A stretch of 64,000 nucleotides of DNA from positions 32,001 to 96,000 of IMG/VR virus record IMGVR_UViG_3300023179_000037; one strand, written 5' to 3'. The notes under the pieces are model-generated. The model was not told where the DNA came from, did no database searches, and saw only the letters and a list, made by a program, of their open reading frames with translations. The position numbers and the translations under genes are program-made. Below, piece after piece: positions 1,222-51,760 of this stretch (positions within the stretch are counted from its first letter, which is position 1; every line of letters begins with the position of its first letter). Source of the DNA: a virus.

Positions 1222-3843
1222 TTATCTCCTGTATTGTTGATCGACCATTTCCTGATGAAGTCTGTCGCTTGATAGTTGTCTTAATGCCCTTACATTATCC
1301 ACAGTTCGTTGATTTCTGTATATCTCTTTGGGAGCATAAAAATTAACATCTGATAAAGCAACCAAATAGGTATTAAATCCCACTGGCGCTCTGGCCAGAT
1401 TATCTATAGAAACTCCAGCAGCTGCATCGTTGTCTTGAATATTTTGTTTTGTGGTATACTGAGTATTAGTTTGTCTTTCTGGTTCCGGAGTAGTTGGTTT
1501 TGTATCTAGAATGTTGTTTATAGGATTAGTTCTATCGATTAAAAAATTACCTGCAGTTTGAGGAATTTCTAACTGTGTAACAGGAGCTATGGCAACTGTC
1601 TGTGTTGTAACTGGTTGAACTTCTGCACTTTGTATTTGTGGAGGTTGTACTAGGTTTATCTGTATGGCTCCAGCATTGGTAACAATATTTTCTGACTGTA
1701 ATTGTTCCTGTTTATCAGATAACTGCATCATCGGCGGAGTATATTGACTACTTGTTTGTGTTTGAGTTGCAGCAACAGCAGAACTAGTTGGTGGCAGTAA
1801 AGGACTAGCAGTGCCTGTTTCAGATCTTCTTTCCTCGATAATTGGCGCTGTACTCACATTTATATTTACAAAGGTTTGTACTGAACCTGTATTTTGTTGA
1901 ATGGTCTGATTAGATGTATTAAAGATTTGTACCGGATTAACTATGACTACACTAGTATTTGTACTAGTTTGCTCGGTCTGTGCAACAGATGTTATGGGTT
2001 TTAATGATACCATGCCTAAAACTTCTGCACTATTCTGAGTATTTTGTTGGTTATTTACTGTAGCACTGGAATCTGATTTATTGAAAACTATGCTAGTGCT
2101 GCCTGGTGCTGGGCCAACTATAAAGGTTTCAGATTTATTTGTGCCAGCTATGGATTCTGTAGAGCCAGAAGATTTCTGAGAACTTATATCTGAAGAACTT
2201 TTCTGAGCCAAATCCAAAGCCAATGTTTCTGCCTGTTTTATGCCTGCTACAGCGCTTATCTGTGCATTTTCTACAGCAGTCTGACTAGCCTGCAGAGCTA
2301 TGTTGTTCTCTCTTTGTTGATTTTGTTTGATTATAGATAATGCCAGAGCTGTAGAATCAGACTGTGCAGGATTATCAAGTCTTGAAATAGATTTGCCTGT
2401 TGATTCAGATACGCTCATGGTCAATGAAGTTACGGGCGATGGTGCTCCAGGTGGAGGGGCGGAACCTGGAAGTGGGGGAGATCCCAGTGGAGGTTTACCA
2501 GAATCACTATCAATAATGGCTACTTTTATTTTGGGATTAGTAGATTCTGGATCTTCCAGAGGAGCAGGTATTTTTCCTGCAGGAGGCGGAGTGGATGCAG
2601 TAATAATTTCATTCAATGATGTTTGTTGAATTTTATTTTGTTCGTCTGCCAATCGTTTTATTTCAGCATTAAAGTTGCTGCAGTTTGGACTATATAATGG
2701 CTGTGTATAACAGGGATCTGGACTCCATATGGGTTTAGTATAGGGTGCTATGCCCATGTTGTCGCCATATCCTCCCCATACATTCCAACTTATTCTGCCC
2801 ATGTTAAGACTATTCTGCGATTCAACAAAAAGAACTCGTCCAGATCTGCTGCCCCCACTGTAATTTCCTTCGACCCACCAGCTATCATTGTACAGACTAG
2901 TACCAAATTTATCGTTTATATTAAAACTAACATTTCTTCCATTGGCGCCACTGGAAGCCCAACAAATTATAAAACTAGCAGTACAATAATCACCAGCATA
3001 ATACCCGAATCCATAGTCAAAACCATGTAACTGTACACCGCCACCTATGTGAGGAAGTGTTTTAGCAATATCATAGTTCCACCAAAAGGTTGGACTCAAA
3101 GATCCTTGTACAACACTGCTAAATCCCGGACAACCTGAACTAAAAGCAGGATTTAGTATGCAGGGATCTACACTGTAATTCACATGCATGTAGGCATCTT
3201 TTACCTGCGGTCCATAGCATTGGTTTCCAGAACAGGCCCAAAATCCTGTATCCATGCCAGTGATGCTTAGCTTGGCTGTGCCCACTGTTGACAACATCTT
3301 GGCCCCGGAAAATGTATAGGTTTCGGCCAAGGATTGCCAGGTAGGATTATAAGGGGGATTTCCGTCATTGATATTTTTTAAACCAAGCTGATGCAGTTGT
3401 GAATGCTCTATGGCTCCGGACTTGTTAAAATATTCAAAGGTTGCACTCAGATTATCCTGCATTCCAGATACATCTTCACAATATCCACCGATTTTATTTG
3501 CACAGGGAAATCTATACTGAAAACCATAGCTTATTCCAGTAACAAAAATAGCGCTCGTGTTCTGATAATTAACTGGAAAATTACCTGCATTTACTGTTTG
3601 CGATACTGTGCTGTTGGAATAAGAAAAAGTATAACCATCGGTCACAAAACTACCAGGCATTCCGCTGACATTCCAGCCATTGTTGGTTTTTAGGCTACTG
3701 TCATAGTTTAGTAAATTGCCGGTCTGTAGATCTATGCTATAACCGCTGGGCGTATTAATGGATCCTGAACTGGTAGCCTGAGCCAGAACAGCAGAGCTCT
3801 GCGTCAGCAACAATAAGCACAGTATAATCTTTAAAAAATTCAT
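1222..3843 (-). CDS. Large secreted protein with Cys-containing repeated modules and Pro/Ser/Thr/Gln-rich C-half
   Basis: Sec-type signal peptide; two DPC-x3-P-x2-S-x2-C motifs; low-complexity linker. Confidence 0.7.
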   Translation of the reverse strand: MNFLKIILCLLLLTQSSAVLAQATSSGSINTPSGYSIDLQTGNLLNYDSSLKTNNGWNVSGMPGSFVTDGYTFSYSNSTVSQTVNAGNFPVNYQNTSAIFVTGISYGFQYRFPCANKIGGYCEDVSGMQDNLSATFEYFNKSGAIEHSQLHQLGLKNINDGNPPYNPTWQSLAETYTFSGAKMLSTVGTAKLSITGMDTGFWACSGNQCYGPQVKDAYMHVNYSVDPCILNPAFSSGCPGFSSVVQGSLSPTFWWNYDIAKTLPHIGGGVQLHGFDYGFGYYAGDYCTASFIICWASSGANGRNVSFNINDKFGTSLYNDSWWVEGNYSGGSRSGRVLFVESQNSLNMGRISWNVWGGYGDNMGIAPYTKPIWSPDPCYTQPLYSPNCSNFNAEIKRLADEQNKIQQTSLNEIITASTPPPAGKIPAPLEDPESTNPKIKVAIIDSDSGKPPLGSPPLPGSAPPPGAPSPVTSLTMSVSESTGKSISRLDNPAQSDSTALALSIIKQNQQRENNIALQASQTAVENAQISAVAGIKQAETLALDLAQKSSSDISSQKSSGSTESIAGTNKSETFIVGPAPGSTSIVFNKSDSSATVNNQQNTQNSAEVLGMVSLKPITSVAQTEQTSTNTSVVIVNPVQIFNTSNQTIQQNTGSVQTFVNINVSTAPIIEERRSETGTASPLLPPTSSAVAATQTQTSSQYTPPMMQLSDKQEQLQSENIVTNAGAIQINLVQPPQIQSAEVQPVTTQTVAIAPVTQLEIPQTAGNFLIDRTNPINNILDTKPTTPEPERQTNTQYTTKQNIQDNDAAAGVSIDNLARAPVGFNTYLVALSDVNFYAPKEIYRNQRTVDNVRALRQLSSDRLHQEMVDQQYRR

Positions 3844-5426
3844 TAGTTATACTCGCCCGATGTATAACCCTTTACTGTTTTTGCTTCGGCGGGCTGAGTT
3901 TTATAATCATACTGAGGTATTTTTTCGGGATTGGCTTGCCATAAATCTTTGGCCTGATCACCTATTTTTCCTTCATAAGGACAGGGAGTACCAGCTGCCA
4001 TCATGGCTTCCCATACTCTGCGATCCTGACACATGGTAGCCACAGCAGCAACCTTCATGCCCATGTCAAATAAGGTTTTACTAAGCTTTAATCTTTCGCA
4101 GTTTAAATCTCGTTGAGTACCACCCAATGCCATACCGAACATCTGAGTTTGCAGCGCACCGCTGGCACCTGTAGTGCACAGATCAGCACCCCCGCCAGAC
4201 ATCATGGCAGGAGCTATGGCTGTTGGGGGCGGCTGTATGACACGCTGTGTAATAGTGGTTTCGTTGATGTTTCTATTGGTCATGTCTCCAGTCTGGACAT
4301 TCTGATTAATATTAGTGTTGTTATTCTGATTTATATTTGTGTTGGTTGATGTAGCAGTGGACTGATTAATGTTGCGATTGGTCATGTCTCCAGTCTGGAC
4401 ATTGGTATTATTATTGTTGGTTGTAGCTGTCGTCTGGTTAATGTTGCGATTGGTCATGTCTCCAGTCTGAACATTGTTGTTGGTGTTTACATTGTTGGCT
4501 GTACTGGTGCTATTGTTGTTATTATTATAGGTCATGGTGCCAGTATTGACGTTATTATTGGTGTTAACACTGGTGGAGTTATTGGTGTTTATGCTGGTAC
4601 TCGTCGATGTATTGATGTTGCGATTGGTCATATCTCCAGTATTAATATTATTATTTGTAGCAGTGCTGGTACTGGTATTGACATTGTTGTTATTGTAGGT
4701 AACAGTTCCAGACATAATAGTTCTATTGGTACTGTCACTAGTACTGGTATTTTGATTGATGTTGGTTATTTGTCCAGACTGAATATTGTGATTTGTATTA
4801 ACATTAGTCGCAGTACTGGTGCTGGTATTTTGATTGATGTTAGTTATCTGCCCAGACTGAATATTATTGTTGGTATTTACATTGTTATTTGTACTGGTGC
4901 TAGTACTGGTATTTTGATTGATGTTGGTTATCTGCCCAGACTGAATATTATTGTTGGTATTTACATTGTTGTTTGTACTTACACTGGTGCTGGTTGATGT
5001 GTTGTTATTGTTATTGGTCATGGTACCAGTATTTACATTATTATTGTTGTAGGTAACCGATCCACTCATATTATTGTTGTTGTTATTGGTTACTGTGCCG
5101 CTCTGCACATTATTATTGGTATTTACATTTGTGCTTGTACTGGTGCTGGCGTTGACATTATTGTTGGTATTAGTACTAATACTGTTTACTGTACTGTTAT
5201 TAGTATTTGTACTTGTACTAACACTGGTATTATTGGTTTGTACAGAACTGGTGCTGTTAGATGTCGAATTGGTATCTACAAGACTTTTGGAATCGTAACT
5301 GCCTTGGTTTATGGGGTTAGTAGTACTGGTAGTAGTTCCGTTAGATGTTGACTGAGTACTGGTGTTTTGCGCTGATGCTATCGCCGTAAACATAATTAAA
5401 AGCGCTGCTAGAGCCGCTTTTAACAT
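3843..5426 (-). CDS. Secreted Asn/Thr-rich repeat protein with Cys-rich C-terminal domain
   Basis: Signal peptide ending ASA|Q; about 350 aa of N/T/S repeats; C-terminal PPPTAIAP..DLC..NCERLKL..MCQD..GTPCP domain; SD AGGAG. Confidence 0.75.
   Translation of the reverse strand: MLKAALAALLIMFTAIASAQNTSTQSTSNGTTTSTTNPINQGSYDSKSLVDTNSTSNSTSSVQTNNTSVSTSTNTNNSTVNSISTNTNNNVNASTSTSTNVNTNNNVQSGTVTNNNNNNMSGSVTYNNNNVNTGTMTNNNNNTSTSTSVSTNNNVNTNNNIQSGQITNINQNTSTSTSTNNNVNTNNNIQSGQITNINQNTSTSTATNVNTNHNIQSGQITNINQNTSTSDSTNRTIMSGTVTYNNNNVNTSTSTATNNNINTGDMTNRNINTSTSTSINTNNSTSVNTNNNVNTGTMTYNNNNNSTSTANNVNTNNNVQTGDMTNRNINQTTATTNNNNTNVQTGDMTNRNINQSTATSTNTNINQNNNTNINQNVQTGDMTNRNINETTITQRVIQPPPTAIAPAMMSGGGADLCTTGASGALQTQMFGMALGGTQRDLNCERLKLSKTLFDMGMKVAAVATMCQDRRVWEAMMAAGTPCPYEGKIGDQAKDLWQANPEKIPQYDYKTQPAEAKTVKGYTSGEYN
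4743..4990 (-). repeat. Coding tandem repeat, about 78-84 nt unit (TNNNIQSGQITNINQNTSTSTS...) x3
   Basis: Near-identical units ...ggtattttgattgatgttggttatctgcccagactgaatatt...; related QTGDMTNRNIN units at 4260-4640. Confidence 0.85.
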
Positions 5427-5562: not shown

Positions 5563-5585
5563 TATAGAGTCTATGGAGATTCTTG

Positions 5586-7046
5586 ATGCGCTTTTATACT
5601 AATGTAGTAAGTTTTGGTAACAAAATACTTGTTCGAGGAATAAACAACGGTAAAAGAGTACAAGATCGAATTGATTTCGGCCCAACTCTTTTTATTAGAT
5701 CAAACAAATCATCTGAATATAAATCCTTATATGGTCAAAACTTAGAATCAATTGCCTTTGAATCAATTAATGAAACTAGGGATTTTATAAAGCGATATAA
5801 AGAAGTAAAAGATTTCCCCATATTTGGTAATACTAATTTTGCATATCAATATATTACTAAAGAATTTCCTGAAGATATAGAATTCGATATTAGTCAGATA
5901 AAAATATGGACAATCGATATTGAAACTTCTGCAGAATTTGGTTTTCCCGATGTTTCTGATCCGATTGAAGAACTATTACTAATTACCATTCAAGATTTTA
6001 ATACTAAAGAAATAGTTTCGTTCGGCACTAGACATTGTAATTCTATAAAAGAAAATCATACATATCATCGCTGTAAAGATGAATATGATCTCTTTAAGAA
6101 ATTTATTGACTTTATGTCTAACGACTATCCTCATATTATTACGGGTTGGAATATTGAATTTTTTGACATTCCTTATCTATGCAATAGAATTCGTAAGATT
6201 CTCGGTGAGGATATTTTAAAACAATTATCTCCCTGGAATGTGGTCAATCAAAGAGAAATTAGTAGATTCAAAAGTATAGAAACAGTTTTTGATATTTTGG
6301 GGATATCTATTTTAGATTATTTAGATTTATATAGAAAATTCACATATACTGCACAAGAATCCTACAAATTAGATCACATTGCTAAAGTAGAACTTGGAAA
6401 AGAAAAAATTGACTATGGTGAATACGATTCGTTTAGAATGTTTTATAAAAATAATTGGCAAAAGTTTGTTGAATATAACGTAGTTGACGTTGAACTTGTA
6501 GATCAACTTGAAGATAAAATGAAGTTGATTGAATTGATTCTTACAATGGCATATGATGCTAAATGTAATTACGTTGATGTATTTTCAGCAGTAAGGACAT
6601 GGGATTGTATTTTGTGGAATCATCTTTGGAAAAAGAACATTGTTGCTCATCAGAGGGATGAGTCTAGAAGTGGTAGACAAATTGAAGGGGCATTTGTACA
6701 AGAACCCAAACCCGGTAAATATGATTGGGTGGTATCTTTCGATGCAACAAGTCTATATCCAAGTATTATTATGCAGTATAATATGTCACCCGAAACAATT
6801 ATGCCGGGAAAAGAAGATGTAACAGTTGATACATTAATTAATAAAGAGCATTCACTTGATACATTGAAAAAAGATAAACTTTGTATGGCAGCAAATGGTT
6901 ATAAGTTTAAAACAGATAAGCAAGGTATTTTTCCTGAAATTGTACAAAAATTATTTGATGACCGGCAAAAGTATAAAAAATTGATGATTGCCGCTCAAAA
7001 AGAGATGCAGTTAATAGAAGAAGAAATACGAAGAAGATCGTCATAA
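5586..7046 (+). CDS. 43A: DNA polymerase family B, N-terminal subunit gp43A (exonuclease, motif A, first fingers helix)
   Basis: Exo motifs DIET, GWNIEFFDIPY, YNVVD; motif A SFDATSLYPSII; ends in fingers region; SD GGAG before ATG 5586. Confidence 0.95.
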   Translation: MRFYTNVVSFGNKILVRGINNGKRVQDRIDFGPTLFIRSNKSSEYKSLYGQNLESIAFESINETRDFIKRYKEVKDFPIFGNTNFAYQYITKEFPEDIEFDISQIKIWTIDIETSAEFGFPDVSDPIEELLLITIQDFNTKEIVSFGTRHCNSIKENHTYHRCKDEYDLFKKFIDFMSNDYPHIITGWNIEFFDIPYLCNRIRKILGEDILKQLSPWNVVNQREISRFKSIETVFDILGISILDYLDLYRKFTYTAQESYKLDHIAKVELGKEKIDYGEYDSFRMFYKNNWQKFVEYNVVDVELVDQLEDKMKLIELILTMAYDAKCNYVDVFSAVRTWDCILWNHLWKKNIVAHQRDESRSGRQIEGAFVQEPKPGKYDWVVSFDATSLYPSIIMQYNMSPETIMPGKEDVTVDTLINKEHSLDTLKKDKLCMAANGYKFKTDKQGIFPEIVQKLFDDRQKYKKLMIAAQKEMQLIEEEIRRRSS

Positions 7047-7238
7047 TATTCAAAAAGCAATAGAGAAAAGAATTGGAAGTAAGGATTCCCTCGAAACCAT
7101 CTTTAAAAGAGCAAACTCGGTGAAGAATTTTTATTCTAACAATGTGAGCATTTTAAAGGACGTACCAAAATCAGCAGAACATAAACCGCCATCAATATGA
7201 AAAGATGGCATTTTGAACGTTGCAAAAGGAAAATATGA
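7042..7238 (+). pseudogene. Collapsed homing-endonuclease remnant between 43A and 43B
   Basis: Frame 1: KAIEKRIGSKDSLETIFKRANSVK...LKDVPKSAEHK (NUMOD3-like); frame 2: AINMKRWHFERCKRKI* (typical phage HE C-terminus) whose TGA overlaps the 43B ATG; no start codon or nuclease domain. Confidence 0.65.
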
Positions 7239-8342
7239 ACCTTAAAAATCTTTCTATGGAGGAACTGCAAGCGCTTCGAAAAGACACTGAGAAGAAAATT
7301 TCTAGTTTGAATAATTATCAAATGGCTAGAAAAATTCAACTCAATAGTCTTTTCGGTGCGCTTGGTTAACTAAGGTAACGAATACTTTAGATTTTATGAT
7401 GATAGAATAGCAGAAGGCATTACAATTACTGGGCAGTATACAATTAGGACTGTAGGCAAAGCTCTAAATGAATATCTTAATAAGGTATGTAGTACTAACG
7501 ACTATACTTATTCTTTTTATTCAGATACTGATGCATGTTATATTACGCTTGATCCCTTAGTGCAAAAATTTTATAAAGATATGCCTAAGGACAAAGTTGT
7601 GGAAATTCTTGATAAAATCTGCGATGAAAAGATAGAAAAGGCAATCAATAAGGCATGCGATGATCTCATGTCTTATACCAATTCCTTTGAACGAAAGGTA
7701 TACTTTAAACGAGAAGTAATTGCTGATAGAGGTATTTGGGTAGCAAAGAAAAGATATGCTTTGAATGTCTATAACAATGAAGGCGTACAGTATAAAGAGC
7801 CAAAGTTAAAAGTAATGGGTTTAGAAATTGTTAGATCTTCCACTCCAGAGCCTGTTAGAAAGGCATTAAAAGAAGCAGTAAATTTAGCATTGACTAAAAC
7901 AGAATTACATATTCAAAAATATATTAAAGATTTCGAAGAGGAGTATAAGACACTTAAAGTAGAAGATATTGCTTTTCCTAGAAGTGTAAATGGTATTAAC
8001 AAATATAGTGACAAGTCAAGTATTTATAGACAAAGTACTCCAATGCACGTAAGAGGTTCTCTTTTATATAATTTCCATTTAAAGAATAAAAACTTAGATA
8101 AAAAATATGAGTTGATTAGAGAGGGAGACAAGATTAAATTTATATATTTGAAAGAACCAAATACTATAGGAGAAAATTGTATTGCATTTATTTCATCCAT
8201 ACCCGACGAATTTCAATTGACACAGTATGTCGATTATAATATAATGTTTGAGAAGTCTTTTCTTGAACCATTAACAACTATTTTAAATGGTATTGGTTGG
8301 AATGCTAAACCAATAGCAACTTTGGAAGGTTTGTTTGCATAG
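7235..8342 (+). CDS. 43B: DNA polymerase C-terminal subunit gp43B, interrupted by a 10-nt coding gap (join 7235-7366 + 7377-8342, 365 aa)
   Basis: SD AGGA, ATG 7235; MNLKN...RKIQLNSLFGALG then TAA; +1 frame continues NEYFRFYDDRIAEGITITGQ...YSDTDA (motif C)...KKRYAL...KVMGLE...LEGLFA (clamp-binding tail). Confidence 0.85.
7361..7376 (+). other. Candidate translational bypass site (take-off GGT 7364-7366, stop TAA, landing GGT 7374-7376)
   Basis: Removing TAACTAAGGT restores the conserved GALGN; hairpin CUUGG-UUAA-CUAAG. Confidence 0.6.
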
Positions 8343-8351
8343 GAGTTTTTT

Positions 8352-9413
8352 ATGTCTCTATTAGAAAAATTAAAAAAGAATTCTACAATAAAGGAAACAG
8401 AAGTATTGGACAAGTCCAAATTCTTTTTGAAAAAGGATATGATTCAAACTTCTGTACCAATGATAAATGTTGCTTTATCGGGATCTTTAGAAGGAGGATT
8501 GTCGCCGGGACTTACAGTATTTGCCGGCCCATCCAAGCATTTTAAAACCGCGTTTTCTTTACTATGTGCAAAGGCTTATTTAGACAAATATGAAGATGCT
8601 ATTATTTTATTTTACGATTCTGAGTTTGGTAGCCCTCAGTCTTATTTTGATAACTTCAGTATCGACACATCCCGTGTTCTTCATACGCCCATAACTGATA
8701 TTGAGCAATTAAAATTTGATAGTATGCAACAGATCAATAATATTGAGCGCGGAGATCACGTAATGATTGTAGTTGATTCTGTAGGCAATCTTGCATCCAA
8801 GAAAGAAGTAGAAGATGCTTTAGAAGGCAAATCGGTTGCGGACATGACACGTGCTAAACAAATGAAATCTTTGTTTAGAATGATTACCCCACATCTAACA
8901 ATCAAAGATATCCCAATGGTTGTAGTTAACCACACATATTCGGAAATAGGATTATTTCCGAAACAAATTGTTTCCGGTGGCACTGGATTAGTTTACTCAG
9001 CAGATAATATTTTCATTATTGGACGCCAACAAGAAAAAGATGGTGCTGATGTAGTAGGGTTTAACTTTATTATAAATGTAGAGAAATCTAGATTCGTCAG
9101 AGAAAAATCTAAAATTCCGATCGAGGTATCTTTTGAGGGTGGTATCAGCACATGGTCGGGTCTACTTGATGTTGCTATGGATGGTGGATTTGTTGTTAAA
9201 CCTAGTAACGGTTGGTATTCGCATAAAGGGACTGAAAAGAAACATAGACATAAGGATACGTATACTAAAGAGTTTTGGATGCCTATTTTAACTAGCAAAG
9301 AGTTCCGAGATTATATAGAATCAAGATTTAAAATTGCTGGTACAGATATGTTACAAACAAGATTAACAGATGAGGATTTAGACCAGGAGTTTGATAATGC
9401 TAGTGAAGTATGA
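8352..9413 (+). CDS. uvsX: UvsX RecA-like recombinase
   Basis: Walker A GPSKHFKT, YDSEFG, DSVGNLASKKE, SGG; T4 synteny 43-uvsX-40-41. Confidence 0.95.
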   Translation: MSLLEKLKKNSTIKETEVLDKSKFFLKKDMIQTSVPMINVALSGSLEGGLSPGLTVFAGPSKHFKTAFSLLCAKAYLDKYEDAIILFYDSEFGSPQSYFDNFSIDTSRVLHTPITDIEQLKFDSMQQINNIERGDHVMIVVDSVGNLASKKEVEDALEGKSVADMTRAKQMKSLFRMITPHLTIKDIPMVVVNHTYSEIGLFPKQIVSGGTGLVYSADNIFIIGRQQEKDGADVVGFNFIINVEKSRFVREKSKIPIEVSFEGGISTWSGLLDVAMDGGFVVKPSNGWYSHKGTEKKHRHKDTYTKEFWMPILTSKEFRDYIESRFKIAGTDMLQTRLTDEDLDQEFDNASEV

Positions 9414-13793: not shown

Positions 13794-13876
13794 GGGGATG
13801 TGGTGAAATTGGTAGACACACCTGGTTTAAGCCCAGACGTTTCGACGTGAGAGTTCGAATCTCTCCATCCCCACCA
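13794..13876 (+). tRNA. tRNA-Leu(TAA)
   Basis: GGGGATG/CATCCCC acceptor, D-loop TGGTAG, anticodon TAA, long variable arm ACGT-TTCG-ACGT, TTCGAAT T-loop, encoded CCA. Confidence 0.92.
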
Positions 13877-13890
13877 ATAGGTTTCTTTGT

Positions 13891-13964
13891 GCGACCATAG
13901 CTCAGAGGTCAGCAGCGCCCGGCTCATAACCGGTGGGTCCCTGGTTCGAATCCAGGTGGTCGCA
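13891..13964 (+). tRNA. tRNA with CAT anticodon (Met or Ile2), no encoded CCA
   Basis: GCGACCA/TGGTCGC acceptor, CCGG-CTCATAA-CCGG anticodon arm, CCTGG-TTCGAAT-CCAGG T-arm; irregular D-stem. Confidence 0.75.
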
Positions 13965-13980
13965 CAAAGAAACTTATAGG

Positions 13981-39300: not shown

Positions 39301-40705
39301 TCAAAATAATTATTTAGGTAATATTTCTGCGGGCAATGCTTACATAGGAAATTTAATTGTCGGTAACATAACATCTACTGGCAATGTTACGGCATTTAGT
39401 TTTAGAAATGATAACAATACCATAATTAGAGCTGGTATTTTTGATTCAACATTTACCGATACTGGTAATGTTATATTGCCCAATTTATATGTTTCTGGTG
39501 TTGTTTCTGGTAATGGTGCCGGACTAATAAATGTTCCGACAACAATTACGTCTACTACTTTAGTATCATATGGTGGTAGTATTCTTTCTAGTAATATTGT
39601 TGTAACAGGTAATGTAAGTGCCAATTCATTCATAGCAACCGGCAACGTAAATGCTGCTCAAATAGGTGTTACTGGTAATTTAATTGCTAATAATGCTACA
39701 ATTATAAATGATATTCTTTTACCTGCAGATAGAGCTAATAGTATTGTTTTCTTGAATGCAGGTAAGTATGTTACTACTAGTTCTGCATTGACATTTGATG
39801 GTAATGTAATGTCCATCACCGGCAATTTAAATGTTAGTGGTAATATTAATTTTGCTGGAAACACAAGCTTATTATTCGTTAATGATAACAATACTGTTAT
39901 TAGAGCTGGTATTTTTACAACTACATTTACAGATACAGGTAATATTCTTGCTCCAAATATTTACGCATCGGGTATTATATCTGGAGATGGCTCTGGCCTA
40001 ACAAATCTTAGACCCAATCTATTATTAACTATTCCGACTTATACTGGTAGTATTGCTGCCACTAATGTAACTGTTGCTGGTAATGTAACAGCACAGAATG
40101 TTGTTGTGTCTGCAAATACAATTACCGGTAATTTAACTGTTATAAATGATATCAGTTTACCGTCAGATATTTCAAATGCTATTTTATATTTAAATTCAAG
40201 TAAATATATATCATCAAGTAATTCATTTACATATGATGGATATACTGTTAATTTAACTGGTAATTTAAATGTTGGCAATGTCAATACTACAGGTGGCGTA
40301 TCCGCTATTAGTTTTAGTAATGACAATAATACTATCATAAGAGCAGGCATATATCAATCTGTTTTTAGTGATACGGGCAATGTCACAATGCCAAATCTAG
40401 TTGTCACTGGTACAGTTACGGCAACTGATTTAAATACAACATCAGATATGACATTAAAAAATAATGTTGATACAATAAGAAATCCATTTAATATTTTAAA
40501 TTATGTTAGAGGTGTTCAATTTAATTGGAAAGAATCTGGAGAAAAGTCATATGGTGTTATTGCTCAAGAGTTACAAAGATTTCTACCAGAATTGGTTAAA
40601 GATTCCAGTATGGGAAAGACAGTTTCATATTTACCATTAATCGCATTTTTAGTTGAAGCAGTAAAAGATTTACAAAATCAAATAAATGACCTTAAGAGAA
40701 AATAG
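33389..40705 (+). CDS. Long repeat-rich tail fibre with C-terminal S74 intramolecular chaperone
   Basis: Many TTSNLxEGxNLYFTNAR and DVDTT..LxWNG.W repeats; six DNNTIIRxG repeats; TSDMTLKNN..GVIAQE. Confidence 0.85.
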   Translation: MTKLLSGRVKKIPSANVSSTRYQFLKLEETEPDLGLPSTDGQALLSNVTGYRYWGNVFATISDADKANIANTVLGQVQAATTSGFANLAGYANVSQNANVANIVLSLSNFTTSNLSEGTNLYFTNARVAANVSLLSINVLYDVDTTGASTNQVLTWNGTRWVANNISSIGTASSATNANTASIANTALTANVSNTVLSISNFTTSNLTEGTNLYFSNARAITAAIPAVTQLKPNIGGGAPSSVFYWLFDDNQYLGTNPTVYVTAGETISFDLNNISIDTFGLVKASTGSNVTTGLTHVSPAGTITTGAGAQGKTSGKLFWKVPFEEQGNVYNYTSFSRSFTGNIVVQKPTALLSTFHIPENGNLYYTDTRVLTNVSSMSINVLADVNTTGASSGQILGWNGSEWIPTSVAGVTSSTFANYANTANIARTANLANFANVANFANTSNIANSVLSLSNFTTSNLTEGTNLYFTNARVTANVSLLSINVLYDVDTTGLATNKVLTWNGTAWVPTDVLGTGVAAFANTSLLAGFANSAGQANQANTALTAATATIAFLASLATSAVSATTASVADIANVANFANVAKVSNTTNFANVANIANLVVSLENFTTSNLLEGNNLYYTNARVLSNVSVMSINVLADVNTSGLTDGQVLVWQGSSNNWIPGTISLVNASNISALANYANVSGGANVANVVLTISNFTTSNLAEGNNLYYTNARVYSNVINVLTTYNGNISAGNINLSGRYYGNGSALLGITTAQVKESGNLLYFTNALSRLSVSSANGIDYQPNTGVFQLANTVTFTEVRTVVTTFESGTANSLTILGNLTVYGNVVGFFSNTLIVNDPLIQLGYSNPSDAIDLGFIGHYNQSGTERHAGLFRDASETDKRFKFFEGYTLEPNTAVIATTDPSFALANVEAKEFIGNINWNRILNVPDPRITVNITGDVSGSAYGDIIDLQNNTINIVTAINPNSVALGTDTTGDYVANLIAGTGVFISGLTGESATPTIAIGQNIAPTANVTFNKITADGSNITNLSTDQIREGSTNLYYTNTRVFSNVSLMSIDVLADVSTVGVQTGNTLYFDGSYWVPGPNFVETPTVASTANLVLSLDNFTTSNLIEGSNLYFTNARARAAFTAGSGIFITPSGVISANASSLYVDQIKYTFTSVGNQSVFNGNDDNGQNLVIASPNKVLVFLNGVLLMKDIDYTANSIAVVLNDSVTANDVVTVFDGVLVGAQNTIVDYLQNVNANLLPFIDNYYSIGSSTLSWKDLYLANGIITFKNAGILNAKANAIIYYDTTGNIIFEANANSRTITPLLGVQGTYGNATIIPAFSVDQFGRIISISNVNVAGISAGSATSAESANVANIVLSISNFTTANLTEGSNQYFTNARVAANVALLSINVLADVDTTGVSTGNALIWNGTNWVPGTASGAGSASTAIFAQTANVANSASTATFAQIANVSNTVLSISNFTTANLTEGTNLYFTNARVTANVSLLSINVLYDVDTTNVRTGNVLTWNGTQWIAANVVSSGGGTVDLATYGGNILASNVVVTGNLTVSNINFIGGSTLGFSSDNNTIIRSGVFVSRFEDSGNVFLPNLIVSGKYFGDGSSLTGVLTLASLSNSYISNISIGNVAAGNITAGNIIVTGRFIGDGSGLTGITASAISITTSSVAEGTNLYYTNARVISAIQNNYLGNITAGNAYIANLVVGNLVSTGNITSISFRSDNNTIIRAGIFDSTFTDTGNVLVPNLYVYGNIYGDGQYLTGVLTRASLANTFVSNISVGSLSVTGNINAGNIILTGKITGDGSGISNISAAGIILSTSNVFEGSNLYFTNTRVITAVQNSYFANLSVGNLSVGNINTNNGQLVISVSQDNNTIIRSGIFATTFTDTGNVTVPNLIITGGIFGNASTLTGVVTTSSLNSYSFGNISAGNVIVTGKFIGDGSGLTGITASAISITTSAVAEGSNLYYTNARVISAIQNNYLGNISAGNAYIGNLIVGNITSTGNVTAFSFRNDNNTIIRAGIFDSTFTDTGNVILPNLYVSGVVSGNGAGLINVPTTITSTTLVSYGGSILSSNIVVTGNVSANSFIATGNVNAAQIGVTGNLIANNATIINDILLPADRANSIVFLNAGKYVTTSSALTFDGNVMSITGNLNVSGNINFAGNTSLLFVNDNNTVIRAGIFTTTFTDTGNILAPNIYASGIISGDGSGLTNLRPNLLLTIPTYTGSIAATNVTVAGNVTAQNVVVSANTITGNLTVINDISLPSDISNAILYLNSSKYISSSNSFTYDGYTVNLTGNLNVGNVNTTGGVSAISFSNDNNTIIRAGIYQSVFSDTGNVTMPNLVVTGTVTATDLNTTSDMTLKNNVDTIRNPFNILNYVRGVQFNWKESGEKSYGVIAQELQRFLPELVKDSSMGKTVSYLPLIAFLVEAVKDLQNQINDLKRK
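38540..39471 (+). repeat. Internal duplication in tail fibre; identical 62-nt blocks at 38540-38601 and 39410-39471
   Basis: gataacaataccataattagagctggtatttttgattcaacatttaccgatactggtaatgt occurs twice, 870 nt apart. Confidence 0.85.
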
Positions 40706-40728
40706 CCGAGTAACCTAGGGGGACGAAG

Positions 40729-42675
40729 ATGGCAATTAAAGTAAAAGGATTAACATTACTACCCGATGAAAACGGTAATGCGAGAAATAATACCGGATTG
40801 GGTATTAATACTCTTCTTGGCATAACTACTGGCACAGACAACGTTGCTGTTGGTTATCAGGCATTGGATGCGAATACGACTGGCTCGGCTAACACTGCGA
40901 TGGGGTCTGGTGCGTTGGGGGCCAACACCACCGGAGCAAACAACACAGCAGTTGGTTATCAATCTCTCTACGCCAACACCACGGCCTCCAACCTTACTGC
41001 AATTGGCTATCAAGCTATGTACACGGAGAATGGAGCAGGAGGTGGTGGTCAAAACAACGTAGCACTTGGTTATCGAGCGTTTTATTTATTAAATGGCACT
41101 GGTGGAGGTATAGCCCAATCAAACACGGCCTTAGGTTCTCAAGCTGGGTACAACACTACCGGAGCCGGTGTAAATAATAATACTTTTGTAGGTGCTTTTG
41201 CCGCATATACTAATACTGGCGGTTACGGCAACACCGCTTTAGGATCATCAGCCCTCTACGCCAACACCACTGGCACAAACAACGTTGCTGTTGGTTATGA
41301 GGCATTAAGAGCCAACACCACCGCCTCCGGCAACACCGCTGTTGGTTACCAAGCCCTCACCGCAAATCAAACTGGCACTGAGAATACTGCTGTTGGCGGA
41401 CTTGCTCTCGGAAACAATACAACCGGAAATTATAACACAGCCTTTGGGGGGAACATAGGAAGCGGTGGTATTCTATGGTATCCGGCACTGAGATTTAACT
41501 CAACGGGCAGTCATAACGCTGCTTTTGGTGATGGTGCTGCGGCTAGTAATACCACTGGTAGTTATAACACAGCCATTGGCACTGCCGCACTTTACACCGC
41601 CCAAACTCCTTCTGCTAACACCGCTGTAGGCTACCAATCTCTCTATTCAACAACCACGGGCGGAGGGTTAGTTGCAATTGGCTATCAGGCTCTAAACGGT
41701 AACACTACTGGCGCAAACAACACCGCTGTTGGCTATCAATCCCTCGCCAACAACACCACTGGCGCAAATAACACCGCTGTTGGTTATCAGGCAATGAGTA
41801 GTAATTACATTACAGGTTCTAATAACGTTGCTATTGGCACTCAAGCCCTCTACGCCAACACCACTGGCGCAAACAACACCGCTGTTGGTTATCAATCTCT
41901 CTTCTCCAACAGCACAGGCACAAACAATGTCGCTGTTGGTTATCAATCCCTCTACGCCAACACCACTGGCCTACAAAATACCGCTGTTGGTTATCAGGCG
42001 TTAGATGCGGCTACTAGTAGTGACAATGCGGCCTTTGGAGCTGCTTCACTAGGTTCTAACACCACAGGAAGATATAACGTGGCAGTTGGAGCTAGTGCGG
42101 GTGGTGGTGTAACAACGGGTGAACATCATGTTTCTCTTGGTTTTAACGCTGGAAACACCGTAACCACTGGTTCATATGGTGTTTATATAGGTTCATCATC
42201 AGCAGCATCGTCTTCTTCAGCAAGTAGCGAAATAGTAATATGTCATTACAACCAAACAGGCAAGGGATCAAACACAGGGTATATGGTTCCTGGATCTGGA
42301 GGTATGTACCAAGGCAATAACTCATCTTCTTGGTCAACCACCTCTGACCGCAGGCTTAAAAAGAACATCGTTGATAACAACGAAGGCTTAGACAAGATTA
42401 GCCAGATTCGGGTTCGCAACTTTGAATATCGCTTGCCTGAAGAAGTTGATCCGGAACTTAAACCAACAGATGCTGTAAAAAAAGAAGGCATCCAACTTGG
42501 TGTCATTGCTCAGGAACTTCAAGAAGTCTGCCCTGACTGCGTGAAAGAAGAAACCACGGGCGTGTTATCCGTAGACTCCGACAACGTGTTCTGGCATATG
42601 GTTAATGCTATTAAAGATCTCTCATCACAATTAAATTTAGCTTTACAACGTATAGCAGTTTTAGAAAACGCTTAA
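40729..42675 (+). CDS. Tail fibre/spike with 14-aa NTAVGYQAL repeats and S74 chaperone
   Basis: YadA-head-like repeats; TSDRRLKKNI..GVIAQE. Confidence 0.85.
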   Translation: MAIKVKGLTLLPDENGNARNNTGLGINTLLGITTGTDNVAVGYQALDANTTGSANTAMGSGALGANTTGANNTAVGYQSLYANTTASNLTAIGYQAMYTENGAGGGGQNNVALGYRAFYLLNGTGGGIAQSNTALGSQAGYNTTGAGVNNNTFVGAFAAYTNTGGYGNTALGSSALYANTTGTNNVAVGYEALRANTTASGNTAVGYQALTANQTGTENTAVGGLALGNNTTGNYNTAFGGNIGSGGILWYPALRFNSTGSHNAAFGDGAAASNTTGSYNTAIGTAALYTAQTPSANTAVGYQSLYSTTTGGGLVAIGYQALNGNTTGANNTAVGYQSLANNTTGANNTAVGYQAMSSNYITGSNNVAIGTQALYANTTGANNTAVGYQSLFSNSTGTNNVAVGYQSLYANTTGLQNTAVGYQALDAATSSDNAAFGAASLGSNTTGRYNVAVGASAGGGVTTGEHHVSLGFNAGNTVTTGSYGVYIGSSSAASSSSASSEIVICHYNQTGKGSNTGYMVPGSGGMYQGNNSSSWSTTSDRRLKKNIVDNNEGLDKISQIRVRNFEYRLPEEVDPELKPTDAVKKEGIQLGVIAQELQEVCPDCVKEETTGVLSVDSDNVFWHMVNAIKDLSSQLNLALQRIAVLENA

Positions 42676-42687
42676 AAGATATAAACA

Positions 42688-44127
42688 ATGGCATCTAAAG
42701 CAAGATATATAGCAAATTTTATAATAGCCGGCAATAATATTGCCAACAGCACTATTACCTTTTCTGACATTGGATTGTTATTTACATCTAATGTAAATGA
42801 ACTTGGAAATCTTTACTACACCAATGCCAGAGTATTTTCTAATGTATCTCTGATGAGTATTGATGTTCTTGCTGATGTGGATACAACCGGTAAACAAGTA
42901 GGTAACACTTTAGTATGGAATGGTAGTTATTGGGTACCGGGTGCAGTGGGTTCAGGTGGCGGCGTTAATCTTTCAGAAACAGCGAATGTTGCAAATACAG
43001 TTGTATCCATCAGTAACTTTACTACTGCAAATTTAGCAGAAGGATCAAATTTATACTTTACTAATGCAAGAGCTCTTGCTGCAGTTCAGTATCAAGATTT
43101 AAGTATAGATGATTTGTTTGTTGCCGGCAATTTAACAGTTCAAGGTAATGTAGTTACTTTAAATACTGCAACTGTTATAGTTGAGGATAAGAATATAATA
43201 CTTGCCAATGGTGCAGGATCAGCAGCAGCTGCAGATGGTGCCGGTATTACTATCGATGGAGCAAGTGCATCGTTAACATATGTCTATTCTGTTGACAGAT
43301 TTAGATTTGATAAAAATGTAGACATTAGTGGTAATCAAGTTTTAACTACAGCAAGTTCTACGACAAATCTACCAGAAGGTTCAAATTTATATTTTTCAAA
43401 TGCTAGAGTAGCAGCCAATGTATCTTTATTAAGTATTAATGCTCTAGTCGATGTAGATACTACTGGAGCAGTAAGTGGAAATGCATTAGTTTGGAATGGA
43501 ACCAATTGGGTACCGGGGACGGTAGCTGCCGGATCTGCTACTGCATCTTTAACTGCAAATTTCGCCAATCTGGCAGCAAATGCTAACTTAGTTCTTTCTT
43601 TAAGTAATTTTACTACTTCAAATCTTACTGAAGGAGTAAATCTTTACTACACCAATGCTAGAGTATGGGCTAACATAACGGGCGGTATAACAACCTCATA
43701 TGTACCTGAAGGTTCAAATCTTTACTATACCAATGCAAGAGTAAGATCTGCTATAACGGCAGGTAATACTTTAAGTTATAATAGTAGTACTGGCAACATT
43801 ACAATGACTCCTTCGGGCGTAACACCTGGAGTTTATGGTAATTCGACAATAGTGCCGGTTGTTACTGTCGATCAATTTGGTAGAGTAACCAATGTCTCGA
43901 ATATAAATATAACGGCATCAGTAAGTGGCGGAGGCGGAAGTCCAACGACAGATTCTTCTAATGCCAATGTATTTACATCAATGAATGGTATTTTTATTAA
44001 TTCAGCGAATGTAACATTGAATTATACTATAGGATCTGGGTATAATGGATTATCTGCAGGACCTATTACGATTTCTGCAAATACTAATGTTATTGTTTCT
44101 GCTGGTAGTTTTTGGACTATAATATAA
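42688..44127 (+). CDS. Tail-fibre-associated repeat protein
   Basis: NLYYTNAR repeats, VEDKNIILA, YGNST.VTVDQFGRVT. Confidence 0.75.
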   Translation: MASKARYIANFIIAGNNIANSTITFSDIGLLFTSNVNELGNLYYTNARVFSNVSLMSIDVLADVDTTGKQVGNTLVWNGSYWVPGAVGSGGGVNLSETANVANTVVSISNFTTANLAEGSNLYFTNARALAAVQYQDLSIDDLFVAGNLTVQGNVVTLNTATVIVEDKNIILANGAGSAAAADGAGITIDGASASLTYVYSVDRFRFDKNVDISGNQVLTTASSTTNLPEGSNLYFSNARVAANVSLLSINALVDVDTTGAVSGNALVWNGTNWVPGTVAAGSATASLTANFANLAANANLVLSLSNFTTSNLTEGVNLYYTNARVWANITGGITTSYVPEGSNLYYTNARVRSAITAGNTLSYNSSTGNITMTPSGVTPGVYGNSTIVPVVTVDQFGRVTNVSNINITASVSGGGGSPTTDSSNANVFTSMNGIFINSANVTLNYTIGSGYNGLSAGPITISANTNVIVSAGSFWTII

Positions 44128-44140
44128 TGAGTACATTATA

Positions 44141-45271
44141 ATGAGTATATTAAAATTTTCAGGTAATTTATTTGGCACTGGTTCTGTTACAATAACTTCG
44201 CCAAATACCAATGCTACCTATAGTATTACTTTGCCAGCATCTTCCGGTGAATTAGTTTCCACTGGAAATTTTAATACTGGTATAGTTACAGAAGGTACAA
44301 ATTTATATTTTACAAATGCAAGAGTAATTGCTGCAGTATCTGATGGACTTTCAACTAGTAATATAGCAGAAGGTTCAAATTTATATTTTACAAATGCTCG
44401 TGTTGCTGCTAATGTAGCTTTACTAAGTATAAATGTATTATATGATGTAGATACTACAAATGCTGTAGCCGGAAATGCATTGGTATGGAATGGATCTACC
44501 TGGGTACCGGGAACGGTTGCAGCTGGATCAGCATCTACAGCATTAACATCCAATTTTGCCACTCTAGCAGCAAATGCCAATCTAGTAGTTTCCATTAGTA
44601 ACTTTACTACAAGTAATCTTGCTGAGGGCAATAATCTATACTATACAAATGCTCGTGTTCGTTCAGCTATAACTGCTGGTAATACATTATATTATGATCA
44701 AACTACGGGTAATGTTACTTTAACCAGATCCGGTGTTACTGTTGGTGTTTATGGTAATTCATCAACTATTGCTGTAGTAACAGTGGATCAGTTTGGAAGA
44801 GTAACAAACGCTCAAAATACTGTTGTTTCAAGTTCTGCTGTTGCAGCATCAGGTAGTGATAGGCAAATTCAATACAACAATGCTGGATCTTTTGCTGGCG
44901 CTTCATCTTTTACATTTGACGGGTCGAATGTAACTATTGGAAATGCCGGACAACTAAGATTTGCCAATACAAATTCTACTCGATATGTTTCATTTAGAGC
45001 AAACACAGTATTATCCGCTAATGTTACTTGGACATTGCCTGGAACAGATGGTTCTGCTAATAGTGCACTGTTAACTGACGGATCTGGAAATTTATCTTTT
45101 GGTCGATCAGCTAATTCGCAAGCAGCCGCTGGTTTGTTTGAAAATTCAAATCTAATAGTAACAAGTTATACAATTAGAGAAGGATACAATGCTATCAGTG
45201 CTGGACCAATAGGTGTTGCTCCCGGAGTCACTGTTACTGTTCCTGCTGGAAGTACTTGGTTGGTGTTGTAA
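44141..45271 (+). CDS. Tail-fibre-associated repeat protein
   Basis: Same repeat family; C-terminal NAISAGPI..TVP.GS.W. Confidence 0.75.
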   Translation: MSILKFSGNLFGTGSVTITSPNTNATYSITLPASSGELVSTGNFNTGIVTEGTNLYFTNARVIAAVSDGLSTSNIAEGSNLYFTNARVAANVALLSINVLYDVDTTNAVAGNALVWNGSTWVPGTVAAGSASTALTSNFATLAANANLVVSISNFTTSNLAEGNNLYYTNARVRSAITAGNTLYYDQTTGNVTLTRSGVTVGVYGNSSTIAVVTVDQFGRVTNAQNTVVSSSAVAASGSDRQIQYNNAGSFAGASSFTFDGSNVTIGNAGQLRFANTNSTRYVSFRANTVLSANVTWTLPGTDGSANSALLTDGSGNLSFGRSANSQAAAGLFENSNLIVTSYTIREGYNAISAGPIGVAPGVTVTVPAGSTWLVL

Positions 45272-46389
45272 TGAGTCAATTAGTTTTATTGGGTAATGTT
45301 TTAGGAACAGGAGAGATTACATTATCTGCTCCGGAAACAATTAACAATCCAACACTCGTTTTACCCCCAAATTCTAATACCTTAGTATTAAAATCTTATT
45401 TTACTACGGATACTGTTACTGAGGTAGCATCAAATCTTTACTTTACAAATGCAAGAGCGAGATCTGCTTTTGCATCAGTAACAAGTTCTAATATTAGTGA
45501 AGGTACTAATTTATATTTAACTAATGCTAGAATTGCAGCAAACGTGGCATTATTGAATTTTAAAGATTTTTTCGATGTTGATGATACGGGATTAGTTGCC
45601 GGCAATGCAATAGTATGGAACGGTTCTCAGTGGTTACCAGGAACAGTATCAGCTGGTGCAGTATCGACAGCAAATACTGTTAATTTTTCCACCTTAGCTG
45701 CAAATGCTAATCTTGTAGTTTCTTTAAATAATCTATCTACATCGAATCTGGCAGAAGATACAAATTTATATTATACAAATGCAAGAGTAATTTCTGCTAT
45801 TACTGCAGGAAATACATTAAATTATAGTAATGGAAATATAACACTAACTACTAGTGGTGTTTCGGCCGGTGTTTATGGTGGCGGATCTAATATAGCAATA
45901 TTAACAATTGATCAGTTTGGTAGAATAACATCTGCATCTAATGTATCAGTTACAGCATTATCAATAGCTGCAGCTGGATCAAATTCACAAATAATGTATA
46001 ATAATGCAGGAATTTTTGCAGGTTCATCTAATTTTATATACGATGGAATAAATATTCAAGTAGGAAGTAGTGGTGCTGTTAGATTAGCAAATATTCTTGG
46101 TGGATTTGCAGGATTAAAAGCTCCAGCTACGATAACGAGTAATATAAATTTTAGATTGCCTGTATCAAATACTGGCAATGCAGAATTAATTACAGATGGT
46201 TCTGGTAATCTAGATTGGGGAAGATCGATTCAGCAAATGGCTGATTCGGGAATGGTGGAAATGGCAAATTCTATAAGTTCTGCTTATACAATTCGAAATG
46301 GTTACAATGCTTTTAGTGTTGGTAATTTAACAATTCAATCTACAGGAAACGTAACATTACCTGATGGTAGTGTTTGGGCTATTTACTAA
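45271..46389 (+). CDS. Tail-fibre-associated repeat protein (paralog of previous gene)
   Basis: Collinear similarity to 44141-45271; TAATG coupling. Confidence 0.75.
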   Translation: MSQLVLLGNVLGTGEITLSAPETINNPTLVLPPNSNTLVLKSYFTTDTVTEVASNLYFTNARARSAFASVTSSNISEGTNLYLTNARIAANVALLNFKDFFDVDDTGLVAGNAIVWNGSQWLPGTVSAGAVSTANTVNFSTLAANANLVVSLNNLSTSNLAEDTNLYYTNARVISAITAGNTLNYSNGNITLTTSGVSAGVYGGGSNIAILTIDQFGRITSASNVSVTALSIAAAGSNSQIMYNNAGIFAGSSNFIYDGINIQVGSSGAVRLANILGGFAGLKAPATITSNINFRLPVSNTGNAELITDGSGNLDWGRSIQQMADSGMVEMANSISSAYTIRNGYNAFSVGNLTIQSTGNVTLPDGSVWAIY

Positions 46390-47030: not shown

Positions 47031-47049
47031 GCAAATAAAGGAACCCAAA

Positions 47050-47292
47050 ATGTCTCTTACCAAACAAACCGTTGTTGACCAAATAACAGTCACCGAGAAC
47101 GGCATCGTGCTTTATCGTGAAGCCACTCGCATTATTGAAGATGAAAAGATACTGACACAAACCTATCACCGCTCAAGCCTGACACCAGGACAAGACCTAA
47201 CCGGACAGCCTGAGAAGGTCGTAGCCATTGCTCAAGTAGCATGGACACCTGAAGTCATTGCGGCGTATCAAGCTTCAATGGCAAACAATTAG
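47050..47292 (+). CDS. Small tail-fibre-associated protein
   Basis: 80 aa, YHRSSLTPG..AWTPEVIAAY. Confidence 0.6.
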   Translation: MSLTKQTVVDQITVTENGIVLYREATRIIEDEKILTQTYHRSSLTPGQDLTGQPEKVVAIAQVAWTPEVIAAYQASMANN

Positions 47293-47301
47293 GAGTAAAG
47301 A

Positions 47302-49548: not shown

Positions 49549-49556
49549 GGTAAAGA

Positions 49557-51758: not shown

Positions 51759-51760
51759 AA

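Follow-up and report, generated by a model that had tools for sequence, protein, structure and literature searches.

In the DNA polymerase gene of an uncultured T4-like phage, ten bases with no counterpart in the protein interrupt the codons for motif B, and we propose that they are a coding gap skipped by programmed translational bypassing, a very rare mode of decoding; we give this reading a probability of roughly 0.8. The gene lies in a window of 64,000 nucleotides (nt) that corresponds to bases 32001-96000 of a 111,975-base IMG/VR record (IMGVR_UViG_3300023179_000037; CheckV completeness estimate 66%). A megablast search with the window gave no match to cultured phages, of which the nearest are cyanomyoviruses at about 52% amino-acid identity. 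The comparisons below use contigs and loci of relatives, which carry the working labels L002-L172, and a set of 77 polymerases fetched from IMG/VR (48-88% amino-acid identity).

By its domains and alignments the polymerase is of family B and of the T4 gp43 type, with an exonuclease domain and motifs A, B and C colinear with those of T4 and RB69 gp43, and it is the only DNA polymerase gene found in this phage. The gene starts at 5583/5586 and has two lesions relative to its closest relatives, L002 and L003, in which it is one 830-codon gene: a split at the tip of the fingers domain, which separates gene 43A from gene 43B, and the ten-base insert within 43B (Table 1). Gene 43A is 83% identical to residues 1-485 of the single 830-residue polymerase of L002 (83-88% for the window polymerase against the intact 830-residue relative), and ends at 7044-46 after a cassette-derived C-terminal tail (...QKEMQLIEEEIRRRSS). 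Gene 43B reads from the ATG at 7235 through 44 codons to ...LNSLFGALG, its final GGT being followed by TAA-CTAA and by a second GGT, and the layout that the sequence-only reading had described for 7235-7376 is thus borne out. We refer to the two GGT codons as the take-off and landing codons; only 7 nt, with no other GGN triplet, lie between them. From the landing codon (7374, frame +1 relative to the first piece) the sequence is open for 322 codons to a stop at 8340-42 (GNEYFRFYDD...YSDTDA...).

Alignment to solved structures shows that this second piece matches RB69 and T4 gp43 from G571 and G568 onward (E = 1e-60), contiguously across the gap, and that G44 of the first piece and G1 of the second correspond to the same residue (T4 gp43 G568, RB69 gp43 G571). 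Because both codons align to one residue in the structures, a single glycine is encoded twice, and removal of 10 nt gives exact colinearity; the earlier claim that such a deletion restores motif B is therefore sound. Simple readthrough and simple frameshifting were rejected for the window, as had been argued before, since frame-0 readthrough meets TAA at 7376-78 and the +1 frame is shut by TAA at 7371-73. A hop of a leucine tRNA from CUU to CUA leads into AGG and then UAA and was also rejected. Nor does the downstream frame offer an ATG, GTG or TTG before motif C, in agreement with the sequence-only reading, the first of these being the GTG at 7560, which lies beyond that motif. Assistance from a phage tRNA was considered as well and set aside: the genome's tRNAs are Leu(UAA) and two Met(CAU), at 13794-13965 (also L138, 11053-11121), with no glycine tRNA and no suppressor tRNA among them.

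Motif B is uninterrupted in all 77 fetched relatives, and the insert is thus a derived feature. An exact 31-mer spanning it is present in three further IMG/VR contigs (L082, L083 and L084) and in another metagenome contig (L135), notwithstanding that the polymerase flanks of these four share only 77-86% of their nucleotides with the window, and the same ten bases recur in L169. Sliding identity along the window and these four closest copies, hereafter the five closest copies, delimits a conserved cassette block (Table 1), within which a core of 54 nt (7340-7393) is invariant. When the 44-residue peptide was compared with 5.8 billion proteins it matched five clusters, from about 12 contigs, all of them exactly 44 amino acids long, 77-98% identical and terminating at one and the same codon; a separate protein search for healed 43B forms longer than 44 amino acids gave no match, which is weak evidence. 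The gap, on the strength of these independent copies, is real and inherited and not an assembly error.

In each of the five closest copies the second piece remains intact, in keeping with the earlier statement that the remainder of both halves is undamaged, and its ratio of non-synonymous to synonymous substitution rates (dN/dS) is 0.04-0.09. The cassette itself has diverged among copies up to a synonymous divergence (dS) of 0.35, and the changes seen in codons 22-44 of 43B, which are the motif B codons, are all synonymous. These observations suggest, indirectly, that the gene has been kept working and that the cassette lineage has always resided in the polymerase gene of a replicating phage.

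It had been suggested that related gp43 genes be inspected for gaps at GALG|N, and degenerate scans for ...NS[LA][FY]G[AG]LG followed by a stop codon, together with the contigs above, reveal the same gap in further contigs and gaps of 8, 8, 9, 10 and 11 nt in five other cassette types, which belong to other clades of the polymerase. The window, L082, L083, L084 and L135 form one type, with UAACUAA between the glycine codons, an advance of 10 nt from GGU to GGU and a GIY-YIG nuclease gene that is intact in L082 and reduced to remnants in the others. L169 has the same UAACUAA, the same 10-nt advance from GGU to GGU and no nuclease, the 43A stop overlapping the 43B start. In L145 the intervening bases are UAACUACU (11 nt, GGU to GGU), with a SegE-like GIY-YIG protein; in L172 they are UAACU (8 nt, GGU to GGU), with a protein that has a helix-turn-helix (HTH) and a DUF559/Vsr-like domain; in L170/L171 they are UAAUU (8 nt, GGU to GGA), with a GIY-YIG protein; and in L146 they are UAGAAA (9 nt, GGU to GGA), with a NUMOD3 protein. 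The assembled allele carries the gap in no fewer than seven lineages, which come from ten or more different metagenomes.

In all six types the first piece runs 41-46 codons from a new start, a stop stands directly after the take-off GGU (UAA in five, UAG in one), and the first downstream GGN triplet (GGU or GGA) is the point at which the conserved protein resumes (GN.YFR.. or GSRFF..). The shifts required across the family are +1, +2 and 0, so that no single frameshift or readthrough event explains all of the gaps, whereas re-pairing of one peptidyl-tRNA-Gly would do so. Two other groups of matches were discarded: L143 has an ordinary uninterrupted polymerase, and L144 together with 23 of the 27 relaxed-pattern matches are chance occurrences outside polymerase genes.

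Several of these loci merit individual description. The L172 gene between 43A and 43B (281-1057) encodes an HTH and DUF559/REase_MTES_1575 (Vsr-like) protein and not a GIY-YIG protein, and the gap cassette is consequently found with more than one nuclease family, which parallels the gene 60 cassettes discussed below. In L169 (minus strand, ~3750-3960) there is a CAATGA stop/start overlap with no nuclease remnant and the 10-nt gap is kept; its 5' hairpin is the strongest of the family, at -57.3 kcal/mol. The N-terminal part of the L146 polymerase (5869-7630, minus strand) lies in two open reading frames, one of 134 amino acids that ends just past the DIE exonuclease motif and one of 421 amino acids starting MTIELTTIKEYK, and this polymerase may therefore carry a further split or insertion.

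RNA folding provides further insight into how the gap might be crossed. A 97-nt structure with a long basal stem is predicted immediately upstream (Table 1), and its closing pair, C7268-G7364, engages the first base of the take-off codon. In the window this structure has a z score of -7.4. The folding controls, which were the homologous 100 nt from 55 relatives with an uninterrupted motif B, give a mean of -12.8 kcal/mol (standard deviation 2.9) and a mean z score of +0.4, and the exons upstream of the group I introns of Aeromonas phage 25 and Escherichia coli phage G2285, which occupy the same site (see below), have no strong structure (z scores of +1.0 and +0.8). The other gap types fold at -33 to -57 kcal/mol with z scores of -4.2 to -10.4, and the register is the same in every cassette type, the first G of the take-off codon pairing with a C located 96 nt upstream. 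By these comparisons the predicted 97-nt structure is a gap-specific RNA signal that is absent from uninterrupted relatives and from intron-type cassettes.

Covariation was counted on an ungapped alignment of seven sequences over a 14-pair basal helix. In this helix 88.8% of cells pair, as against 35-47% after displacement of the partners by 1-3 columns, and two-sided (compensatory) changes are found at four pairs, in eight cells; at the pair involving the wobble base of an alanine codon CG, GC, AU and UA all occur. The covariation score of 0.313 compares with 0.133 ± 0.033 for shuffled alignments, and none of 500 shuffles reaches it. Among the five closest copies alone no covariation is seen, as their sequences are too similar, and it emerges only when the distant cassette types are added. 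The 5' arm falls in the new N-terminal extension, where the residue following a glutamine changes (A, A, G, E, V) in step with the demands of pairing, and RNA pairing rather than protein function thus appears to dictate the codons of this arm.

The small hairpin at the take-off site, CUUGG-UUAA-CUAAG (7361-7374), to which the sequence-only reading had drawn attention, does exist but is unremarkable: its local 66-nt fold has a z score of -0.69, and in longer folds its arms are taken up by stronger helices; it competes with the 5' stem and with a second hairpin, predicted at 7370-7390. As the key signal it lacks statistical support, and it is the 97-nt 5' structure that stands out; the two 3' hairpins may have some role. 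The 7370-7390 hairpin is invariant in the five closest copies and is not conserved in the other cassette types.

The spacer between 43A and 43B bears on the origin of the gap. In L082 an intact gene of 265 codons, with a Pfam GIY-YIG match, lies between 43A and 43B, and a tblastn comparison with its product identifies two remnants in the window spacer: approximately 7047-7185, corresponding to nuclease residues 131-177 at 60% identity, and 7176-7238, corresponding to residues 246-265 (...NMKRWHFERCKRKI) at 90% identity, the TGA of the latter overlapping the ATG of 43B. As L083, L084 and L135 keep remnants that differ from those of the window, the nuclease gene has decayed independently in these genomes and the gap has persisted. 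Over 100% of its length the nuclease of L082 shares 42-45% identity with those of Aeromonas phage 25 (seg43), Aes and E. coli phage G2285, and the phage 25-type seg43 relatives and the G2285 open reading frame all lie inside split polymerase genes. A wider locus search based on the nuclease produced 46 further homologues, of which only L133 (on the same contig as L083) is within a polymerase gene.

In the phage 25 and G2285 cassettes (L085 and L086) Rfam detects a group I intron at GAL|GN of 43B (64 and 84 bits), which is the exact position of the ten bases in the window; no group I intron is found by Rfam in the 112 kb of this incomplete genome record, nor in L082 or L084. The polymerase of L086 (MK327933.1, E. 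coli phage vB_EcoM_G2285; 1407-5208) is annotated 'unable to determine intron/exon boundaries', and the order there is 43A, a seg43-like GIY-YIG gene (2983-3804), 43B exon 1 and then the group I intron, which begins right after GGTGCGTTA and ends before GGTAAC. Judged by its nuclease and gene order, the window cassette is a seg43-type GIY-YIG homing cassette, with ten nucleotides where an intron stands in its relatives. The hexamer AACTAA is found both in the gap and at the very start of the phage 25 intron, which hints at descent of the gap from an intron, although six bases prove nothing; more generally, the gap may be derived from the group I intron or may stand in for it. That the gap might instead be a copy of a dispersed repeat was rejected, because TTAACTAAGG with one mismatch allowed occurs 8 times in the window against 7.5 expected.

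Table 1. Features of the split polymerase gene and of the region around the gap (window coordinates).
Feature	Position	Strand	Description
Gene 43A	5583..7046	+	N-terminal 487 codons: exonuclease domain, motif A, start of fingers (open reading frame list; Pfam DNA_pol_B_exo1 and DNA_pol_B)
Spacer 43A-43B	7047..7238	+	Two out-of-frame GIY-YIG nuclease remnants; 188 nt before the ATG at 7235
Cassette block	7199..7408	+	About 210 nt, 90-100% identical in five genomes; flanks 66-85% (sliding identity)
43B first piece	7235..7366	+	44 codons: new N-terminal extension and motif B helix KIQLNSLFGALG
5' RNA structure, predicted	7268..7364	+	97 nt; 17-bp basal stem, CAAGCGC.UCGAAAAGAC with GUCUUUUCGG.GCGCUUG
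Proposed take-off codon	7364..7366	+	GGT (Gly44)
Ten bases without protein counterpart	7367..7376	+	TAA 7367-69, CTAA 7370-73, landing GGT 7374-76
3' hairpin, predicted	7370..7390	+	8 bp, CUAAGGUA-ACGAA-UACUUUAG; contains landing codon; alternative to 7361-7374 hairpin
43B second piece	7377..8342	+	321 codons past landing Gly, and stop: NEYFRFYD (rest of motif B), motif C YSDTDA, palm, thumb

In the mechanism that we propose, a ribosome translating 43B would reach the point where its P site is occupied by GGU (7364-66) and its A site by UAA-C, the peptidyl-tRNA-Gly would release the take-off codon, the mRNA would move 10 nt through the ribosome, and the same tRNA would re-pair at GGU 7374-76, the first cognate triplet to be met. 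Decoding would then restart at AAC and yield ...LNSLFGALG-NEYFRFYD..., a normal motif B, with the junction peptide ...SLFGALGNEYFR. The driver is probably re-folding of the 97-nt structure behind the ribosome. At take-off the last 10-12 nt of its 3' arm would still be inside the ribosome, with the apical part already re-formed behind it, and the last 10-12 bp could form only when these nucleotides leave the exit channel, so that completion of the stem would correspond to an advance of about 10 nt. By calculation, an advance of 10 nt would change the folding energy by -10 to -16 kcal/mol, the value varying with the number of nucleotides that the ribosome hides. A gain of this kind fits the proposal that pairing of the exiting mRNA drives the ribosome forward in gene 60 bypassing (Wills et al., bioRxiv 10.1101/2024.12.09.627546).

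The whole cassette would have been brought by a homing endonuclease, and would consist of the C-terminal tail of 43A, the nuclease gene, the new 43B start with its N-terminal extension, and the gap. The gap probably breaks the nuclease target in the conserved motif B DNA and leaves the protein unchanged. We propose this role in immunity because the T4 bypass insert protects its carrier from MobA (Manning and Atkins, bioRxiv 10.1101/2022.08.31.505936) and because phage 25 and G2285 have their intron at the same site.

The comparative data, namely a conserved gap, a nuclease cassette, sister gaps of 8-11 nt and a co-varying structure, support the bypass interpretation first put forward in the sequence-only reading, but several observations weigh against it. 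There is no Shine-Dalgarno-like element 5-7 nt before the landing codon, in which respect the cassette differs from most gene 60 cassettes, as the 7 nt between the codons make the gap too short for one; an AAGG does overlap the landing codon in the window and has no equivalent in L145. By eye, the N-terminal peptide bears no convincing likeness to the nascent-peptide signal of gene 60, what likeness there is to KKYKLQNNVRR being limited to residues common to all polymerases. With E. coli-type decoding no single tRNA reads both the take-off GGU and the landing GGA of L146 and L170/L171; the codon match in these types is weaker, and landing would call for a tRNA that tolerates a wobble mismatch. 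Since the -1 frame stays open in the 8- and 11-nt types, these could formally give rise to a frameshifted protein longer by 3-4 residues. As part of the flank divergence predates arrival of the cassette, the dN/dS evidence is of an indirect kind; the genome record is 66% complete, and a second polymerase or a trans-acting RNA may lie outside it; and the natural short hops described in the literature are inefficient.

Other explanations can be set against the same evidence. The ten bases could be removed from the RNA, either as the relic of a group I intron excised by a ribozyme acting in trans or through endonuclease cutting and rejoining by an RNA ligase. T4-like phages encode RNA ligases, the homologous cassettes of phage 25 and G2285 have their group I intron exactly at GAL|GN, AACTAA is common to the gap and the start of the phage 25 intron, and the large RNA structure ends at the gap, all of which would be in keeping with such a process. 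Ten nucleotides are nonetheless too few for a ribozyme fold, the 112 kb of the genome contain no group I intron detectable by Rfam, and we know of no trans system of this kind. RNA removal would, moreover, leave unexplained why the gap begins with a stop and ends with a second glycine codon in all six cassette types, and we consider it improbable. A related question is whether the enzyme is instead assembled from three polypeptides: 43A, the 44-residue peptide and an independently started C-terminal piece of 322 residues. The split 43A/43B polymerase of phage 25 is active (PMC2988022), and the AAGG at 7372-75 resembles a ribosome-binding site; however, none of the five closest copies has an in-frame ATG, GTG or TTG before motif C, and the only near-cognate starts, ATA and ATT, lie at least 11 codons downstream with no conserved binding site ahead of them. 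Such an arrangement would cut the motif B helix mid-way and leave the duplicated glycine codon and the 5' structure without a role, which makes it very unlikely.

About equally unlikely is that the gene is dead, broken by a selfish cassette whose carriers live by complementation or by means of another polymerase. Decay of the nuclease gene in four of the five closest copies, and a genome 66% complete in which another polymerase could be unseen, would be compatible with this. Against it are the presence of the gap as the assembled allele across the lineages and metagenomes counted above, the lack of any stop or frameshift over 322 downstream codons in five of five copies despite a cassette dS of 0.35, the exclusively synonymous changes in the motif B codons, and the maintenance of a co-varying RNA structure. 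As the window is a metagenome-assembled contig, a sequencing or assembly artefact might also be entertained, but contigs assembled independently of one another have the identical insert, although 14-23% of the positions around it differ, and homologous gaps of other lengths occur in further contigs, and we give this explanation next to no weight. Programmed bypassing is the reading that we retain.

Comparison with the bypass cassette of T4 helps to place this one. As in T4 39-mobA-60, a nuclease gene divides an essential gene in two; the upstream open reading frame has acquired a C-terminal tail and the downstream one a new N-terminal extension. The gap occurs 41-46 codons past the new start (46 in T4), so that the earlier remark on a take-off distance close to that of T4 is upheld (44 codons against 46), and matched glycine codons for take-off and landing, with a stop directly after take-off, are likewise common to both. 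In gene 60 cassettes, as here, the gap often outlasts its nuclease, which has decayed or gone missing, and in some members the nuclease is swapped for one of another family; the end of the cassette also lies shortly past the landing codon in both. The differences are equally clear. The host gene here encodes motif B of a DNA polymerase and there the Toprim domain of a topoisomerase; the gap is 8-11 nt, as opposed to 50 (20 in the Aeromonas clade); and the nuclease is a GIY-YIG protein (seg43-like), whereas that of T4 is MobA (HNH). There is no room here for a UUCG-capped take-off stem-loop or for a mini-Shine-Dalgarno element 6 nt before landing, and the 5' structure is much stronger and stands 0 nt from the take-off codon, compared with 9 nt upstream of it in T4. 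No sequence likeness to the gene 60 cassette was seen. From its host gene (PolB gp43) and nuclease (GIY-YIG) we judge that the window element is not a homologue of T4 mobA/gene 60.

A closer relative is the seg43 cassette of Aeromonas phage 25, Aes, phiAS4 and E. coli vB_EcoM_G2285 (PMC2988022; DQ529280, MK327933), with which the window shares a homologous nuclease, the order 43A-nuclease-43B and a second interruption placed exactly between GAL and GN of motif B. The nature of that interruption differs, being there a self-splicing group I intron of ~220-350 nt with an upstream exon of z about +1, and here an 8-11-nt gap behind a strong co-varying structure. The bypass case proposed in the sequence-only reading is not an isolated one: it is a member of a family in which the nuclease is akin to the seg43 product of phage 25.

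Short hops of a similar kind have been described elsewhere. In E. coli stop-hopping (Weiss et al. 1987, as reported in a citing paper) and in the UUA-dependent bypass proposed for the terminase of the Streptomyces phage phiHau3 (PMC10732093), which is the other case put forward in a phage, one tRNA re-pairs at a nearby match after a slow A-site codon, independently of frame and over gaps of a few nucleotides. The E. coli events are low-level and have no dedicated signals in the citing paper's account, and the phiHau3 case, as its source presents it, involves a rare sense codon and is regulatory; the present gap, in contrast, interrupts the gene of an essential enzyme, has become fixed in many lineages and comes with a dedicated RNA structure.

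The byp elements in the mitochondria of Magnusiomyces capitatus are also short mobile inserts in essential genes, present in large numbers and bypassed by means of matched codons. They differ in belonging to a eukaryotic organelle, in having gaps of 27-55 nt and no nuclease partner, and in their unrelated sequences.

Some other features of the region may be noted. Immediately 3' of the polymerase gene the window has a 353-codon open reading frame (8352-9413), the counterpart of which in L082 is UvsX/RecA-type recombinase-like, and related cyanophage records give 'recombination protein' at this place. In L084 a tRNA-Met is located directly upstream of the polymerase gene. The G+C content of window positions 40001-52000 is 0.39-0.44, against 0.30-0.36 in the rest of the window.

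Efficient phage bypassing has rested for more than 30 years on T4 gene 60, and its recently described homologues, dozens in number (Manning and Atkins, bioRxiv 10.1101/2022.08.31.505936), share one host gene, that of the topoisomerase, and have gaps of 20-50 nt. Seg43 and the split gene 43 are treated in reviews of T4-like mobile elements, which describe no bypass (PMC2988022), and full-text searches of the literature found no report of bypassing in a phage DNA polymerase. With less confidence than for the bypass itself, we lean towards a broader picture in which the gaps constitute a second, independent natural family of bypass cassettes, located in the replicative polymerase of T4-like phages. 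In this family a structure that closes on the take-off codon would act as a measured mRNA ratchet for an 8-11-nt gap, the gap would replace a group I intron as a device of self-immunity, and introns and gaps would be interchangeable and perhaps interconvertible.

If this is true, bypassing would be a recurrent answer to invasion by homing endonucleases, reached here by way of another nuclease, gaps shorter by a factor of five, and an RNA signal that is both different and very clear. The family would also offer a minimal and naturally varied system for asking what drives the ribosome forward and how the landing site is chosen, as nature provides variants with gaps of 8, 9, 10 and 11 nt, with GGU to GGU and GGU to GGA landings, and with stems of -33 to -57 kcal/mol. 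Gene callers truncate such polymerases or call them pseudogenes, which affects completeness and function calls for uncultured T4-like phages. Finally, a site that holds either a group I intron or a bypass gap, in cassettes whose nucleases are homologous, would give a new handle on how selfish elements protect their carriers.

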